Part shown: positions 24,621 through 31,545 of the stretch, one piece after another
How positions within the stretch are numbered: the stretch's first letter is position 1
Layout of the letters: every line of letters begins with the position of its first letter
IMG/VR virus record: IMGVR_UViG_2563366827_000004
Span: 1-37,588 of that record
Strand: one strand, 5' to 3'
DNA: 37,588 nt
DNA from: a virus
Lineage: Duplodnaviria > Heunggongvirae > Uroviricota > Caudoviricetes
Made by a program: the position numbers and the translations under genes
Notes under the pieces: generated by a model
What the model was told of the DNA's origin: nothing
Seen by the model: the letters and a program-made list of their open reading frames with translations, nothing else
Database searches by the model: none

Positions 24621-24652
24621 AAATAAAAAGGCCTGCGATTACCAGCAGGCCT
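24621..24652 (-). terminator. tR2-like intrinsic terminator between helicase gene and nin region
   Basis: Minus-strand hairpin AGGCCUGC-N8-GCAGGCCU (8-bp perfect stem) followed by UUUUUAUUU. Confidence 0.6.
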
Positions 24653-27295: not shown

Positions 27296-27589
27296 TTAAA
27301 ATTCCATTTGTATTTGATCAGAACGCTCGGTTGCCGCCGGGCGTTTTTTATTGGTGAGAATCGAAGCAACTTGTCGTGCCAATCGAGCCATGTCGTCGTC
27401 GACAACACCCCATTCAAGAACAGCAAGCAGCATTGAGAACTTTGGAATCCAGTCCCTCTTCCACCTGCTGATCTGCGACTTATCAACGCCCACAGCTTCC
27501 GCTGTCTTCTCAGTTCCAAGCATTGCGATTTTGTTAAGCAACGCACTCTCGATTCTTAGAGCCTCGTTGCGTTTGTTTGCACGAACCAT
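27296..27589 (-). CDS. cII: Transcriptional activator CII
   Basis: 97 aa from MVRANKRNEALRIESALLNKIAMLGTEKTAEAVGVDKSQISRWKRDWIPKFSMLLAVLEWGV..., near-identical to recalled lambda CII. Confidence 0.95.
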   Translation of the reverse strand: MVRANKRNEALRIESALLNKIAMLGTEKTAEAVGVDKSQISRWKRDWIPKFSMLLAVLEWGVVDDDMARLARQVASILTNKKRPAATERSDQIQMEF

Positions 27590-27600
27590 ATGTAAGTATT

Positions 27601-27640
27601 TCCTTAACAAATAAGAAGTTATGCGCATCAACTTATGCGC
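27601..27640 (-). terminator. tR1-like hairpin between nutR and cII
   Basis: Minus-strand GCGCAU-N6-AUGCGC followed by a U-rich tract; weak. Confidence 0.3.
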
Positions 27641-27647
27641 GTTGTAT

Positions 27648-27691
27648 TCCCGCATTTCGGCGGGAATGAGGACCATGACTGTTAAAGAGCG
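27648..27691 (-). promoter_or_regulatory. nutR (boxA CGCTCTTTAACA and boxB hairpin)
   Basis: Minus-strand boxA is a perfect consensus, followed by a 6-bp stem hairpin UCCCGC-CGAAAU-GCGGGA, between cro and cII. Confidence 0.7.
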
Positions 27692-27697
27692 GTGTTA

Positions 27698-27892
27698 CTA
27701 TTTGTTTTTCTTGTTGCTTGGGAAAGGACGAACTTCCTCTCCAATCACACTGCCATCAGGCTTTACCGTAACCATAATGTTACGGCCTGCCAGAATGGCC
27801 TTGCTGATAGCGCACTGGATTACACCAAAGTCACTGGCTGCTTTAGCCTGTCCATGGATTTTGGCGTAATCGGCAAGTGTCATTCGAATCAT
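27698..27892 (-). CDS. cro: Cro repressor
   Basis: [62 protein letters not shown] aligns with recalled lambda Cro; ATG 27892 sits 6 nt after GGAGA. Confidence 0.9.
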
Positions 27893-27921
27893 ATGCACTC
27901 TCCGTTATTAACCATGAACAA

Positions 27922-27992
27922 AGAATACTACAGGTATTCAAAGCAATCAATACTTAGGGTATTTTTAGTTTAAGTACCTTAGCTATTAGAAT
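27922..27992. promoter_or_regulatory. OR operator region with divergent pR and pRM
   Basis: Palindromic sites AATACTACAGGTATT (27924-27938), AATACTTAGGGTATT (27949-27963) and a degenerate third (about 27972-27987). Minus-strand pR: -35 TTGATT, 17 bp, -10 TATTCT. cI ATG has no SD, so probably leaderless from pRM. Confidence 0.65.
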
Positions 27993-27998
27993 TAAGCT

Positions 27999-28715
27999 AT
28001 GGAAAATAAAAAATCACTGACGACAGAACAGCTGGAAGACGCTAAGCGGCTTAAGGCTTTGTATGAGTCAAAAAAGAAAGAATTGGGAATAACCCAATAC
28101 TCAATCGCTGATGAACTGGGTATCACCCAAGGAGCGGTAGGGCATTATCTTAATGGCAGAAATGCGCTAAACGTTGAGGTTGCATCTGGTTTTGCACGAT
28201 TGTTGCAAGTCTCAATTGCTGATTTTAGCCAGTCAATTGCTGCCAAGGTTGCAGAACAGGCAGAAAGCCTTAAGAGCGATGCCAACGTAAGGTATGCAGG
28301 GGAATACAGAGCAGGAAAGAGGTATCCGGTGTTAAGCAGTATCCAGGCTGGCTCGTGGTGTGAAGCATGCGAACCATACACCATTAAAGACATAGATGTT
28401 TGGCTTGAGTCTGACGCGCATATTCAAGGTAATGCGTTCTGGCTTAAAGTGGAAGGTGATTCAATGACGGCACCGGTTGGGTTAAGCATTCCAGAGGGAA
28501 CATTCGTTCTTTTCGATACCGGAAGGGAGGCGATCAACGGCAGCTTGGTCATAGCAAAACTTTCTGACTCTAACGAAGCAACATTCAAGAAGCTGATAAT
28601 CGACGGCGGAAATAAATACCTCAAGGGACTTAATCCTGCATGGCCTCTCGTGCCAATCAATGGAAACTGCAAGATTATAGGCGTTGCAATTGAGACAAAA
28701 CTCAGACTGGTTTGA
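27999..28715 (+). CDS. cI: CI repressor (lambda-CI-like, LexA-type autocleaving C-terminal domain)
   Basis: 238 aa; aligns with recalled lambda CI along its length (TQEQLEDA.RLKA.YE.KK.ELG...FWL.VEG.SMTAP...FTFKKLI.D) but the HTH recognition-helix region differs. Confidence 0.9.
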   Translation: MENKKSLTTEQLEDAKRLKALYESKKKELGITQYSIADELGITQGAVGHYLNGRNALNVEVASGFARLLQVSIADFSQSIAAKVAEQAESLKSDANVRYAGEYRAGKRYPVLSSIQAGSWCEACEPYTIKDIDVWLESDAHIQGNAFWLKVEGDSMTAPVGLSIPEGTFVLFDTGREAINGSLVIAKLSDSNEATFKKLIIDGGNKYLKGLNPAWPLVPINGNCKIIGVAIETKLRLV

Positions 28716-28733
28716 TCACGCAAGGGGGCGCTT

Positions 28734-29102
28734 ATGGTTGGAACCGCTATAGCAAGCTTTTTTGGGATGTTGGCAATCTCGACAATTTACGGCTTAGCGC
28801 ATGCTTTTATTGCGAAATCTCTATCAGAAAAAATAAGCCAGGCTTGGGCGCATAGATCAGCTCGTTTCATGATTCTGGTGATCATAGCAATACAAGGGAT
28901 ATCTGCATTTATCCTCTATGGATCAAGCTTATACCTATTGTATCAAGGCGCGACATTTACGCCTTACACCAGTGATTACGGAACTCTATACGATGGTAGT
29001 GAAGACATCACTGTGGCTTGGATCGTCTTTGGTTTATCTATGGCCGTGTCTGTTGTAGCAGACATCATTAAGGTAATTCTCGTCTTAACCTTCGCTGACT
29101 AA
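28734..29102 (+). CDS. Hypothetical 3-TM membrane protein, rexAB-position gene
   Basis: 122 aa; AGGGGG RBS 5 nt upstream; starts 18 bp after the cI stop; three hydrophobic segments (about aa 2-27, 45-70, 92-120). Confidence 0.7.
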   Translation: MVGTAIASFFGMLAISTIYGLAHAFIAKSLSEKISQAWAHRSARFMILVIIAIQGISAFILYGSSLYLLYQGATFTPYTSDYGTLYDGSEDITVAWIVFGLSMAVSVVADIIKVILVLTFAD

Positions 29103-29233
29103 CCTATAATCCCGGCAGCAATAGCTATCGGGATCCACTTCACATATCCCGCATAAAAAGCACTGAACAAGCAGACACCGAAAAAATAAATATCCTTTGT
29201 ATTCATTTGCTTATCATTATTTCATCAAAAATA

Positions 29234-29275
29234 AATACCTTGGGTATTTACACAATAAAATACCTACAGTATTCT
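29234..29275 (+). promoter_or_regulatory. OL operators and pL promoter
   Basis: AATACCTTGGGTATT (29234-29248) and AATACCTACAGTATT (29259-29273), same palindrome family as OR; -35 TTTACA (29247-29252), 17 bp, -10 TATTCT (29270-29275). Confidence 0.6.
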
Positions 29276-29321
29276 TTAGCCATCAGCAGGAAGCTGGAAG
29301 CCAAACGGAAAAGATTGGCAG

Positions 29322-29362
29322 GCTCTTTAACATTGATGGGATTGTCCCGCCGAAATGCGGGA
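29322..29362 (+). promoter_or_regulatory. nutL (boxA GCTCTTTAACA and boxB hairpin)
   Basis: boxB TCCCGC-CGAAAT-GCGGGA is identical to the nutR boxB. Confidence 0.7.
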
Positions 29363-29469
29363 ACCAAAGAGTAATTGGCTTTGGGGTGACGTGAAGTGCA
29401 GCTGCACGACGGCAACCGGAAGATAAGCACCCGGCGCGTCACCGCCAAAGTCAATCATCGGAGGTCAAC

Positions 29470-29769
29470 ATGACAGTAGTCATTACATATCTGGCTGACG
29501 ATAACGCCAGAAATCGCCGCAGAGCACGCAGACAGGCTCAACGTGAACAGGCGATGCAAGAACAGCGACTGGCGCGAAAAATTGCGCTAAAGCTCTCTGG
29601 TTGCGTCAGAGCGGATAAAGCAGCATCACTCGGAATCCTTCGCTGCAAGAAGGCAGATGAAGTCGAGAGTAAACAGAATCGTATTTACTACCGCAAGCCA
29701 CGCAGTGAAATGGGTGTGACTTGTGTTGGTCGCCAGAAAATGAAATTAGGCAGCAAACCACTTATTTGA
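29470..29769 (+). CDS. N: N-like antitermination protein
   Basis: 99 aa, first gene after pL/nutL, GGAGG RBS, N-terminal arginine-rich motif DNARNRRRARRQAQREQ. Confidence 0.7.
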   Translation: MTVVITYLADDNARNRRRARRQAQREQAMQEQRLARKIALKLSGCVRADKAASLGILRCKKADEVESKQNRIYYRKPRSEMGVTCVGRQKMKLGSKPLI

Positions 29770-29780
29770 GAGGAATTAAT

Positions 29781-30404
29781 ATGTCATCAATCCGCTTAAC
29801 TACGAGAATGAAAGAGGAAATCGCTCGTAACGCTTTAATTAAGTCTGGGGTTTTCACTGAACTTGAAGAAGTAACAAAGTTAAAGAACCAGCTTGCACTT
29901 GACGCCAGAGTTATTGCGTTTGGCGGTAAAAAGAAAACTGAGGAAGTGGATCGGTTATCATCCAAGTTAGCAGCTATAAGTGAAGAACTTGAGAAGATGG
30001 GATGTTCATTTTACTCATGCGATGTTCGTTCTGCTTCGATTTATCTGACTGTATCTGGAAGAAGGGTTGGCTGGCATTCATACGGAAAAGACGGCAACGG
30101 TGAAGATATATTGCTCCCCACCCCAGAAAAAGATAAATGCATGTTTGACGCAGAACACGAAATAACAAAAAGGTTTGATGAAATCTGCGCATTGCAACAA
30201 AAACTTGAAGCCAAGAAAAAGGATATCGAATCAAATGTATGGGCTGCTTTGAACTCAGTCACAACAGTTAAGCGACTTATTGAAGTTTGGCCTGAAAGCA
30301 AAGAATTGCTACCAAAAGAAGCAGATAAAGCAAGTACAGCACTTCCTGCTTTACGGGTAGAAGATTTGAATAAGATGATTGGACTTCCTTCCGAGGCCGC
30401 ATAG
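29781..30404 (+). CDS. Hypothetical 207-aa protein co-transcribed with N
   Basis: ATG at 29781 with GAGAGGAA RBS, 12 bp after the N stop; soluble, no recognised motif. Confidence 0.7.
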   Translation: MSSIRLTTRMKEEIARNALIKSGVFTELEEVTKLKNQLALDARVIAFGGKKKTEEVDRLSSKLAAISEELEKMGCSFYSCDVRSASIYLTVSGRRVGWHSYGKDGNGEDILLPTPEKDKCMFDAEHEITKRFDEICALQQKLEAKKKDIESNVWAALNSVTTVKRLIEVWPESKELLPKEADKASTALPALRVEDLNKMIGLPSEAA

Positions 30405-30419
30405 TCGGCCTTTATTTTT
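30394..30419 (+). terminator. Intrinsic terminator overlapping the stop of the 207-aa gene
   Basis: AGGCCG-CATAGT-CGGCCT followed by TTATTTTT. Confidence 0.6.
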
Positions 30420-30476: not shown

Positions 30477-30538
30477 GGAGCAATGTCGCTCGTAACTAAA
30501 CAGGAGCCGACTTGTTCTGATTATTGGAAATCTTCTTT

Positions 30539-30564
30539 GCCCTCCTATGTGAGGGCAATTTTTT
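30539..30564 (+). terminator. Second intrinsic terminator, immediately before the coiled-coil gene
   Basis: GCCCTC-CTATGT-GAGGGC followed by AATTTTTT, 12 bp before the GGAGG RBS. Confidence 0.55.
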
Positions 30565-30576
30565 GACGGAGGATAT

Positions 30577-31545
30577 ATGAGTGAAGTAACAGATTTAGTT
30601 GTTATTGAAAAAGCAAATGCAATGACTGTATTTCAGTCTGCCGACCAGATTGAAGAAATCCTTCAAAAGGTTGAACGTGAAGTTATGTCCTTTGTGCCTG
30701 ATATCACAACGGCAAAGGGCAGAAAGGAGATCGCTTCTCTGGCGTATAAAGTTGCGCAAACGAAAACATATCTCGATGGTCTTGGAAAAGACCTTGTTGC
30801 TGAACTGAAGGAAATTCCAAAGCTAATTGATGCCAACCGCAAGACAGTGCGTGATCGCCTTGATGAGCTGAAAGCCAAGGCACGCCAGCCTCTTACTGAT
30901 TATGAGGAGGAGCAGGCGCGGATTAAAGCCGAAGAAGAGGCTAAGGCAGCAGCTGAAGCTCTCGCAAAGCAAATTGAGTCTGACCATGAAATAGCGATTT
31001 TGATGGATCGCGAATTTGACCGCCAAAGAGAAGAGGCAAGACTCAAAGCGGAGCAGGAAAAGCGAGAGCATGAAGAACGCTTAAAAAGAGAAGCTGAAGA
31101 GAAAGCCAGAGCAGAAGCCGAAGCAAAGGCAAAAGCCGAAATTGAAGCAGCAGCAAGGCGAGAAGCAGAGGCTAAGGCCGCAGCGGAACGTGCAGAGCGT
31201 GAACGCATTGAAGCCGAGCAACGAGCACAGCGCGAAGCAAAAGAGGCAGCAGAACGGGCTGAAAGAGAAAAGCAGGCGGCAATTGAAGCAGAACGCCGAA
31301 AAGCACAGGAGGAGGCAGAACGAATCCGGCGCGAGGCTGAAGCAAAAGAGCAAGCCAGAATAGCAGAAGAAAAAAGAATCAAGGACGAAGAAGAGCGTAG
31401 AGCAAAGGATAAAGCTCACCGGAAAGAAGTAAATAACAAAATACTTGCTGACCTTATCAAGGTTGGCGCATCAGAAGATGTTGCTAAAAATATCATAACA
31501 GCCATCGTAAAAGGCGAAGTATTCGCAACAAAAATAACCTACTAA
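30577..31545 (+). CDS. Hypothetical protein with a long E/R/K/A-rich helical repeat region
   Basis: 322 aa; about 150 central residues are almost only E, A, R, K, Q; globular-looking N- and C-termini; GGAGG RBS. Confidence 0.7.
   Translation: MSEVTDLVVIEKANAMTVFQSADQIEEILQKVEREVMSFVPDITTAKGRKEIASLAYKVAQTKTYLDGLGKDLVAELKEIPKLIDANRKTVRDRLDELKAKARQPLTDYEEEQARIKAEEEAKAAAEALAKQIESDHEIAILMDREFDRQREEARLKAEQEKREHEERLKREAEEKARAEAEAKAKAEIEAAARREAEAKAAAERAERERIEAEQRAQREAKEAAERAEREKQAAIEAERRKAQEEAERIRREAEAKEQARIAEEKRIKDEEERRAKDKAHRKEVNNKILADLIKVGASEDVAKNIITAIVKGEVFATKITY

Follow-up and report, generated by a model that had tools for sequence, protein, structure and literature searches.

The closest described counterpart of the locus analysed here is found in coliphage HK620, whose GenBank feature table (AF335538; Clark et al., 2001, J Mol Biol 311:657) annotates putative nutL and nutR sites beside pL, pR, the operators and tR1, the last of these right after nutR. 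According to its record, HK620 N resembles the N proteins of H-19B and phi21. H-19B N is a protein of 127 amino acids with the arginine-rich motif (ARM) RSRRRER (PMC3526286). In phi21, the CUAACC loop of boxB adopts a GNRA-like fold with a C-C pair at its flank, and the boxB of P22 forms a GACAA pentaloop with an extruded C (PMC12550061).

Here we compare these systems with a window of 37,588 nucleotides, by which we mean the whole stretch of DNA analysed (positions 1 to 37,588 of IMG/VR virus record IMGVR_UViG_2563366827_000004). The original prediction had read two hairpins in this window as nutL and nutR and a 99-amino-acid protein as their cognate N, together making up an N-type antitermination system. 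This reading fits the HK620 annotation, the covariation of the hairpin stem and the strict co-inheritance of protein and RNA types and, judging from sequence, the two sites are very probably nutR and nutL of an HK620-type lambdoid N antitermination module. The sites as such are already known, the same sequences having been annotated in HK620 in 2001.

Results

Anatomy of the two candidate nut sites

The 18-mer TCCCGCCGAAATGCGGGA occurs exactly twice in the window, at 27648-27665 on the minus strand and at 29345-29362 on the plus strand, and a search of the window that allowed two mismatches found no extra copy (chance expectation 0 in 100 shuffles). This confirms, including the positions, the identical 18-nt hairpin that had been predicted after pL and after cro, and the stretch common to both hairpins is in fact 19 nt long, TCCCGCCGAAATGCGGGAA. 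The predicted boxA consensus before each hairpin was equally borne out: GCTCTTTAACA has exactly two occurrences in the window (27680-27690, minus strand; 29322-29332, plus strand), which with the preceding base read CGCTCTTTAACA at nutR and GGCTCTTTAACA at nutL, and the spacer to the hairpin measures 14 nt and 12 nt, respectively. At both sites (C/G)GCTCTTTAACA followed by the hairpin keeps the same polarity, that of transcription from pR and from pL, on opposite DNA strands.

The nutR site consists of boxA CGCUCUUUAACA (27680-27691, minus strand) and the boxB hairpin AUUCCCGC-CGAAAU-GCGGGAAU (27646-27667, minus strand), whose stem has 8 bp, the inner 6 bp and the loop being those of nutL. The nutL site consists of boxA GGCUCUUUAACA (29321-29332, plus strand) and the boxB hairpin UCCCGC-CGAAAU-GCGGGA (29345-29362, plus strand), identified by repeat, fold and covariation, with a 6-bp stem and the same 6-nt loop. 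Folding of the whole sites from boxA to boxB gave unremarkable z-scores (-0.7 and -0.9), so thermodynamics alone would not pick out these hairpins and the evidence for them lies in the repeat, the context and the covariation. Scanned against Rfam at gathering thresholds, the whole window returned no family, hence no curated model for nut sites, N leader or oop.

Operon context and comparison with HK620

One site lies between pL and N, the other in the pR operon directly after cro, and the order of the sites relative to pL, N, cro and cII is as in lambda. The left hairpin stands between a pL-like promoter (29247-29275, plus strand; -35/-10 TTTACA-17-TATTCT), which was found by a consensus scan, is surrounded by OL operators and has its correspondence in HK620 pL, OL1 and OL2, and the 99-amino-acid ORF (29470-29769, plus strand). 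The right copy lies 7 nt past the stop codon of the Cro-family ORF and lies 5' of a lambda-type cII (Pfam Phage_CII, E 5e-48); cro itself (27698-27898, minus strand; Pfam Cro, E 4e-26), also recognised through HK620, opens the pR operon. The position of pR (27915-27950, minus strand) was transferred from the HK620 annotation (HK620 locus 1329-1364, offset 26586) and had no match in a simple promoter consensus scan. Between nutL and the N ribosome-binding site, folding predicts a long-range helix in the N leader, UUGGCUUUGGGGUGACG ... CGUCACCGCCAAAGUCAA (29376-29454, plus strand; z = -2.7), which is kept in relatives with compensatory block changes. Moreover, pattern matches predict intrinsic terminators on the sense strand downstream of the nut sites in both operons: a strong, tL1-like one (30537-30558, plus strand) and a second one (30393-30412, plus strand) downstream of N in the pL operon, and a strong one in the pR operon (24629-24652, minus strand), just after the DnaB-like helicase gene and in a tR2-like position.

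The region is 98.7% identical to HK620, in which exactly these stretches are annotated, the HK620 nutR feature mapping to window positions 27646-27691 and the nutL feature to 29321-29362; in addition, the mEpX2 record annotates both boxA sites. Shared with HK620 are boxA, spacer and boxB at both sites, cro, cI, hkaS, pL and pR, and the first ~64 codons of N, so that the window holds an identical boxA-spacer-boxB array together with an HK620-type N over residues 1-64. The two phages differ in the C-terminal third of N, which is phi21/lambda-like here (...NRIYYRKPRSEMGVTCVGRQKMKLGSKPLI) and P22-like in HK620 (...CLPNVAIYAAGYRKSKQLTAR), in the gene that follows N, an Nmad5-domain gene here and hkaQ in HK620, and in cII, which is of the lambda type in the window.

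A predicted N protein of mosaic build

The 99-amino-acid ORF is predicted to encode the N antiterminator on the basis of its match to phrog_271 ('anti-termination protein N-like', E 3e-36) and of a profile match to lambda N. An N-family profile built from 20 proteins, the N of this window included, finds lambda N of 6GOV, an antitermination complex, with a whole-sequence E of 6e-8 and a match at residues 63-99, which is the RNA-polymerase-binding C-terminus, and aligns the HK620-type N-terminus to lambda's DAQTRRRERRAEKQAQ and to residues 9-28 of the phi21 N peptide in 1NYB, the NMR structure of phi21 N with boxB. As had been pointed out for the protein after pL, its N-terminus is rich in arginine, with seven Arg in residues 14-25; against Pfam N_peptide it scores 19.4 bits, below the cut-off of 27.9. 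The position equivalent to lambda Trp18 is Ala, and a profile comparison detected no similarity between the central region and the NusA-binding segment of lambda N (residues 34-47). Overall the protein is a mosaic, in which residues 1-33 form an HK620-type ARM module, ARNRRRARRQAQREQ, and residues 34-99 are the phi21-like central and C-terminal parts. Where the module occurs in complete E. coli genomes, the label given to the N protein is mostly 'hypothetical protein'.

ARM type and boxB type are inherited together

Among distinct related loci, 100 combine the HK620-type ARM ARNRRRARRQAQREQ with the loop family described here at both nut sites, and 35 combine the phi21-type ARM with a CUAACC-type loop at both nut sites, whereas mixed sets of these two types number 0 among these ~135 loci. 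In about 145 distinct related loci the HK620-type ARM is invariably accompanied by this boxB at both nut sites. This tally was made with a class-agnostic hairpin finder, and two odd loops that it returned, CCCGCC and CUCUAU, are artefacts of the finder (a 5-bp stem and a stem with a C.C mismatch). An earlier count, which used class-specific loop patterns, found that the same immunity region of ~1085 nt carries either set, at 44 distinct loci the HK620-type and at 35 the phi21-type one, and the HK620-type set occurs with nine inter-nut clusters. The similarity of two aligned loci breaks off precisely at the nutR boxB, at the nutL boxB and at N codons 1-33, and stands at 93-100% from codon 34 onwards. 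In the same aligned pair the DNA past the nutR boxB differs too, and the nutR boxB could have moved with the cII-side segment.

We regard this as a natural swap, in which one immunity region and one N body carry either of two full sets of N-terminus, nutL boxB and nutR boxB. Because nutL is only ~110 nt away from the ARM codons, the co-inheritance of these two is partly simple linkage, and it is the association of nutR across swapped immunity regions that argues for selection. What the loci display of the putative cognate pairing between ARM and boxB is solely this co-inheritance, and in this form the swap supports the long-held view that ARM and boxB make up the specificity module of N antitermination.

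The original prediction had further taken the difference from the boxB of lambda to imply a matching N specificity. The matching gains from the co-inheritance of ARM and boxB types; exclusivity, in contrast, does not follow from a differing boxB, because the boxB requirements of P22 and lambda are reported to overlap, as the title of Cocozaki et al. (2008) states. Functional nut sites and a functional N could accordingly go along with a specificity that is not private to them, and cross-react with lambda-type or P22-type partners, all of which have a GNRA-like loop: at the core of the loop stands a canonical GNRA, GAAA, and the ARM can be aligned with that of lambda (A-x-x-RRR-x-RR). We nevertheless consider such cross-reaction unlikely, given that no mixed set with the phi21 class occurs in ~135 distinct loci despite a common immunity region and N body, and that this system has Ala at the Trp18-equivalent position and a 6-nt loop with C.U closure as opposed to a pentaloop on a U-A pair.

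Compensatory changes in the boxB stem

Covariation of boxB across relatives, which had been suggested as a check of the nut reading, was evaluated on stem variants drawn from four protein look-ups. Across 14 distinct natural variants, five of the eight stem pairs had exchanged both bases (C-G to U-A, U-A to C-G and G-C to A-U) and 88% of cells were paired; since most relatives are near-identical E. coli prophages, this covariation rests on ~6 independent lineages. None of 500 shuffles reached the covariation score, and slid registers were 31-63% paired. The loop CGAAAU was unchanged in 12 of the 14 variants, and the two exceptions, UGAAAU and CGUAAU, come from one phage. A scan of genome contigs with the N alignment yielded only 5 loci, and scans of viral contigs gave mostly near-identical E. 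coli prophages.

This pattern bears on whether the hairpins could be palindromic protein-binding sites at the DNA level, or intrinsic or Rho-related terminators such as tR1. The sequence is indeed an inverted repeat, tR1 follows nutR directly in HK620, and lambda's tR1 has a rut site that overlaps nutR (PMC3526286). However, there is no T-run 3' of either the nutL or the nutR hairpin, so these are not terminators, and the terminator scan does not detect them; the asymmetric CGAAAU loop and boxA keep the polarity of the transcripts, which a symmetric DNA site would not need; and a compensatory stem around a fixed loop is characteristic of an RNA hairpin whose loop is recognised. We therefore rejected both the terminator and the DNA-palindrome readings as highly improbable. 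A decayed, functionless remnant in a defective prophage, conserved through recent common descent, is just as hard to credit: most relatives are E. coli prophage copies of >95% identity and the module is very common, being present in ~10% of complete E. coli genomes, but the N ORF is unbroken and has a GGAGG ribosome-binding site, the same module occurs in the plaque-forming isolates HK620, HF4s, HK140, HK630 and mEpX2, and in diverged Cronobacter and metagenomic lineages compensatory changes preserve the hairpin.

Discussion

We believe that the two sites and the N protein would work together along the lines of the lambda paradigm. RNA polymerase starting from pL or pR would transcribe boxA and then boxB; the nascent boxA RNA would recruit NusB/NusE(S10), and the arginine-rich N-terminus of N (ARM, residues ~12-30), itself the product of what would be the first gene of the pL operon, would bind the boxB hairpin. 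The C-terminus, as the lambda N homologue, would then lock onto the elongation complex with NusA and NusG, and the polymerase modified in this way would be expected to read past tR1 and the terminators that follow N and the helicase gene. The searchable literature contains no experimental test of this N/boxB pair, and a full-text search with the boxB string gave no match.

By analogy, CGAAAU is most plausibly a true GNRA tetraloop, GAAA, that a C.U mismatch closes, a reading that parallels the boxB of phi21, in which a C.C pair flanks the GNRA-like UAAC fold, and that draws in addition on two single-locus loop variants, UGAAAU and CGUAAU, both of which retain a pyrimidine.U closure plus GNRA. 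We tentatively, and with some doubt, suggest from the sequence comparisons that the HK620-type pair may represent a fourth class of N-boxB recognition, with a Trp-less ARM ARNRRRARRQAQREQ, a C.U-closed GAAA tetraloop and a G+C-rich stem, which might be orthogonal to those of lambda, P22 and phi21 and, if so, would be usable as a further peptide-RNA tethering pair. As a secondary possibility, a sequence 3' of the nutL boxB, at 29366-29372, that is complementary to boxA at 29322-29328 could, in combination with the N-leader helix, provide a layer of boxA sequestration or autoregulation that is undescribed for lambda. Otherwise our analysis adds little beyond confirmation, and illustrates that a textbook regulatory module can be recovered exactly from sequence alone.

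With lambda, the locus shares the layout pL-nutL-N and pR-cro-nutR-tR1-cII and the placement of boxA before boxB, and the long N-leader helix after nutL has a lambda counterpart. It differs from lambda in having a full rrn-like boxA, GCUCUUUAACA, where lambda has CGCUCUUA, in a distance between boxA and boxB that is 7-9 nt longer, and in a central region of N that is unrelated. The boxB stem and loop are also unlike those of lambda (GCCCUGA(A/G)AAAGGGC), as the original prediction had stated: the lambda class combines a GAAAA or GAAGA pentaloop, a U-A closing pair and stacking of Trp18, whereas here the hexaloop CGAAAU sits on the C-G pair of a G+C-rich stem of different sequence, and the ARM has Ala and no equivalent of Trp18. 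With phi21-type N proteins the locus shares 90-98% identity over N residues 34-99; boxA is the same as in phi21, and both loops have 6 nt and start with C. The locus is nonetheless not of the phi21 N-boxB class (CUAACC hexaloop, ARM GTAKSRYKARRAELIAERR), since the ARM (AKSRYKARRAELIAERR in phi21, ARNRRRARRQAQREQ here), the loop (CUAACC versus CGAAAU) and the stems all differ, and what is phi21-like is the N body only. P22 gene 24 and H-19B N belong to the same kind of system, and neither has this boxB. If the HK620-type pair is indeed a fourth class, it would stand structurally between lambda and P22, with their GNRA-like pentaloops, and phi21, with its C.C-closed UAAC.

Results

Anatomy and prior record of the nut sites

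The 18-mer TCCCGCCGAAATGCGGGA is present in exactly two copies in the whole 37.6-kb window, as the boxB of nutR (27648-27665, minus strand) and of nutL (29345-29362, plus strand). Both are exact matches, no third copy was found in the window at up to two mismatches, and 100 shuffles yielded none; the stretch common to both hairpin sites is 19 nt. The boxA element GCTCTTTAACA likewise has exactly two copies in the window, both exact, at 27680-27690 (minus strand) in nutR and 29322-29332 (plus strand) in nutL. The right site reads CGCTCTTTAACA, 14 nt and the hairpin, the left site GGCTCTTTAACA, 12 nt and the hairpin, and at both boxA and boxB have the polarity of the sense of their own operon, despite lying on opposite DNA strands. 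RNA folding gives a stem of 6 bp at nutL and 8 bp at nutR, with the loop CGAAAU at both. A T-run is absent 3' of either hairpin, and a terminator scan of the window reported neither of them.

The original prediction of a duplicate hairpin after boxA at nutL and nutR is borne out, and the sites are identical to those in the coliphage HK620 record (AF335538). Positions 27587-29661 show 98.7% identity to HK620 and likewise to HK630, HK140 and mEpX2; phage HF4s is 98.3% identical over 98% of a 2.5-kb query. In AF335538 the two sites are entered as 'nutR; putative N-utilization rightward' and 'nutL; putative N-utilization leftward', together with pL, pR, OL1-3, OR1-3, tR1 and tIMM. Its nut features map to 27646-27691 (nutR) and 29321-29362 (nutL), span boxA, spacer and boxB and no more at either site, and are identical in sequence to the window; in the mEpX2 record, boxA is marked at both sites. 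Since the HK620 record holds the same features, the prediction is a correct rediscovery: the sites have been in the public record since 2001, and the system type is textbook. Of 5426 complete E. coli genomes, 525 carry the module from nutL to the N-terminus of N, and in them the N protein mostly goes under the name 'hypothetical protein' or 'regulator', an annotation gap.

At nutL only, the boxB 3' flank AAAGAGU (29366-29372, plus strand) is complementary to boxA GCUCUUU (29322-29328, plus strand), and in the minimum-energy fold boxA pairs with this flank, enclosing boxB. This complement (AAAGAG; 7 nt in some) is kept in nutL of HK620, Cronobacter and other diverged sites and is missing from phi21-type nutL and one metagenomic variant. 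It could reflect transient boxA sequestration, or chance.

Conservation of boxB as an RNA hairpin

Nearly all of the ~100 distinct relatives have the same boxB and are uninformative on hairpin conservation; stem variants were taken from diverged N loci in Cronobacter, metagenomes and other E. coli prophages. These include CUCCGC…GCGGAG, CUCCAC…GUGGAG and UUCCGC…GCGGAA, an outer U.G in place of U-A, and one stem with a C.C mismatch. Among 14 distinct 24-mers, standard pairs fill 88% of cells, and the covariation proposed as a check across phages with similar N proteins was found, with changes on both sides at five of the eight stem pairs (C-G to U-A in four sequences, U-A to C-G in three, G-C to A-U in two). 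The covariation score was reached by 0 of 500 shuffles, and slid registers gave 31-63% pairing. The support for conservation of boxB as an RNA hairpin is real but not deep, the variants representing perhaps six independent lineages.

A single phage departs from the loop CGAAAU, with UGAAAU at its nutL and CGUAAU at its nutR; in both variants a pyrimidine.U flank and a GNRA core (GAAA, GUAA) remain. The CUAACC hexaloop of the solved phi21 complex has a GNRA-like UAAC fold with a flanking C-C pair (PMC12550061). By analogy, we infer that the HK620-type loop would be a true GAAA tetraloop with a C.U mismatch closing it.

The immunity region and its transcripts

Gene order is that of the lambda immunity region, with the lambda leftward direction on the plus strand. 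A Cro-family ORF (27698-27898, minus strand) is followed by a cI-type repressor with HTH_3 and Peptidase_S24 domains (27999-28715, plus strand) and a 122-aa predicted membrane protein (28734-29102, plus strand; HK620 hkaS; phrog_6534, function unknown). The latter lies between cI and pL in the orientation of cI and, given this co-orientation and its position at the place of lambda rex, is a candidate exclusion or conversion gene expressed by the prophage. The left hairpin falls between a pL-like promoter (29247-29275, plus side) and the N ORF (29470-29769, plus strand), which encodes 99 aa, has a GGAGG ribosome-binding site and places seven Arg in residues 14-25. Directly 3' of N lies a gene for an Nmad5 protein (29781-30404, plus strand; phrog_1965, function unknown), which matches PF18757, 'nucleotide modification associated domain 5' (E 6e-71), whereas HK620 has hkaQ at this position.

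The right hairpin lies between the cro stop and the genes for a lambda-type cII, an O-like protein and a DnaB-like helicase. A mechanical call of cII as a 126-aa ORF (27296-27676, minus strand) placed its ATG inside nutR, and this start was rejected. The ATG at 27589, just after a lambda-like AAGGAAATACTTACAT, is almost certainly the true one; the resulting 97-aa product spans the whole Pfam Phage_CII model.

Sense-strand intrinsic terminators, on which the antitermination system would act, are predicted downstream of both nut sites: two on the pL side, past N and its neighbour (30393-30412 and 30537-30558, plus strand), and two on the pR side, directly after the helicase gene (24652-24629, minus strand) and at 18799-18780 (minus strand). 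The HK620 record places tR1 directly 3' of nutR. Just past the tL1-like terminators, a 322-aa ORF (30577-31545, plus strand) has a very long, highly charged central segment rich in Glu, Ala, Arg and Lys and coiled-coil-like in appearance. Antisense to the cII 3' end, a strong terminator hairpin, GCCGCCGGGCG plus a T-run (27320-27347, plus strand), lies where lambda has its oop antisense RNA terminator, which it presumably also matches in sequence; no Rfam model matched it.

The N leader (29376-29454, plus strand) contains a long-range helix, UUGGCUUUGGGGUGACG ... CGUCACCGCCAAAGUCAA, around a variable insert, ending just 5' of the N ribosome-binding site. Relatives keep the helix through block compensatory changes (GAUUGGAUG/CAUCCAAUC, GGUGAGUU/AACUCACC, GGUGUGGU/ACCACACC). 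Because it resembles the stem that RNase III processes in the lambda N leader, N may regulate its own translation as it does in lambda. Some relatives (such as L003, L010, L034 and L167) have an insertion here, so that nutL and the start of N are 200-450 nt apart, and several such insertions carry a G+C-rich hairpin, GCCCCUC-AGUUC-GAGGGGC, with a boxA-like UGCUCUUUCUGC upstream of it.

N is a mosaic protein

N matches PHROGs 'anti-termination protein N-like' (E 3e-36) and scores 19.4 bits against Pfam N_peptide, below the 27.9-bit threshold. A profile built on 20 relatives matches lambda N of 6GOV, a solved antitermination complex, over residues 63-99, the end that binds RNA polymerase, and aligns NARNRRRARRQAQREQAMQE with lambda DAQTRRRERRAEKQAQWKAA and with the phi21 N peptide of 1NYB. 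The relatives' alignment is mosaic: residues 1-33, with the arginine-rich motif (ARM), exist in two unrelated versions, …ADDNARNRRRARRQAQREQ… in the window and HK620 and …SKGTAKSRYKARRAELIAERR… in phi21, and behind both stands the same central region (LARKIALKLSGCVRADKAASLG…), joined in turn to several alternative C-termini. The window N combines an HK620-type N-terminus with a phi21/lambda-like C-terminus, unlike HK620 N, whose C-terminus is P22-like. One locus on a Pantoea sp. chromosome (L087) has a hybrid N-terminus between the phi21 and HK620 types, AKSRYRARRAAKREQ, and a third hexaloop boxB at nutL, UUCCUCU-CUGACA-GGAGGAA, ~160 nt before N; at its nutR candidate the loop differs (CUAAUC) and the stem contains a C.A mismatch.

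ARM and boxB types are inherited together

With a class-agnostic hairpin finder and loci de-replicated by sequence, an HK620-type N-terminus was accompanied by CGAAAU-family loops at both nut sites in 100 distinct loci and a phi21-type N-terminus by CUAACC-family loops at both in 35; mixed loops occurred in none. The association of nutL with the ARM is partly linkage, because nutL lies only ~110 nt upstream of the ARM codons, and that of nutR is more informative, because nutR sits across the immunity region from them. The sequences that separate the two boxA elements form 10 clusters, and the HK620-type set is found with nine of them. The largest (~1085 nt, with a P22-c2-like repressor; 79 members) is flanked by either set, HK620-type in 44 and phi21-type in 35 distinct loci.

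Pairwise alignment of one locus per type (L027 and L088) gave mostly 80-100% identity from nutR boxA to nutL boxA. Similarity is lost at the nutL spacer and boxB, returns at ~80% identity through the N leader, is lost again over N codons 1-33 and resumes at 93-100% from codon 34. At nutR the break begins at the spacer and boxB and runs into a different cII region, so the nutR boxB could have been carried along by the segment to its right. Recombination appears to have joined the segments at the conserved boxA elements and at N codon 34, and zero mixed sets despite evident recombination is, at the level of sequence, what a cognate ARM-boxB requirement predicts.

Discussion

The original prediction took the divergence of this boxB from that of lambda to imply a matching N specificity. 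Co-inheritance is as this reading predicts, but a different boxB by itself does not prove a private specificity; the requirements of P22 and lambda boxB are reported to overlap (Cocozaki et al. 2008). A full-text literature search for the boxB sequence string returned no match, and the HK620-type ARM-boxB pair appears to be without earlier biochemical or structural characterisation.

Our analysis shows the anatomy of the sites, their identity with annotated ones, the conservation of the hairpin, the co-inheritance of the module and the homology of N, and the remainder of the mechanism is modelled on the lambda paradigm. On that model, boxA RNA would bind NusB/S10, the ARM of N would bind boxB, and the C-terminus of N, together with NusA and NusG, would convert RNA polymerase to a terminator-resistant form, the three regions of N having the roles described in PMC3526286. 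H-19B N is a different protein, of 127 aa with the ARM RSRRRER (PMC3526286).

Compared with lambda, boxA here is the full rrn-like GCUCUUUAACA, the boxB loop has six bases instead of five, and Ala stands at the position of lambda N Trp18. boxA and boxB are 24-26 nt apart, compared with 17 nt in lambda. The N body and the hexaloop format are common to this system and phi21, whereas the ARM, loop and stems differ.
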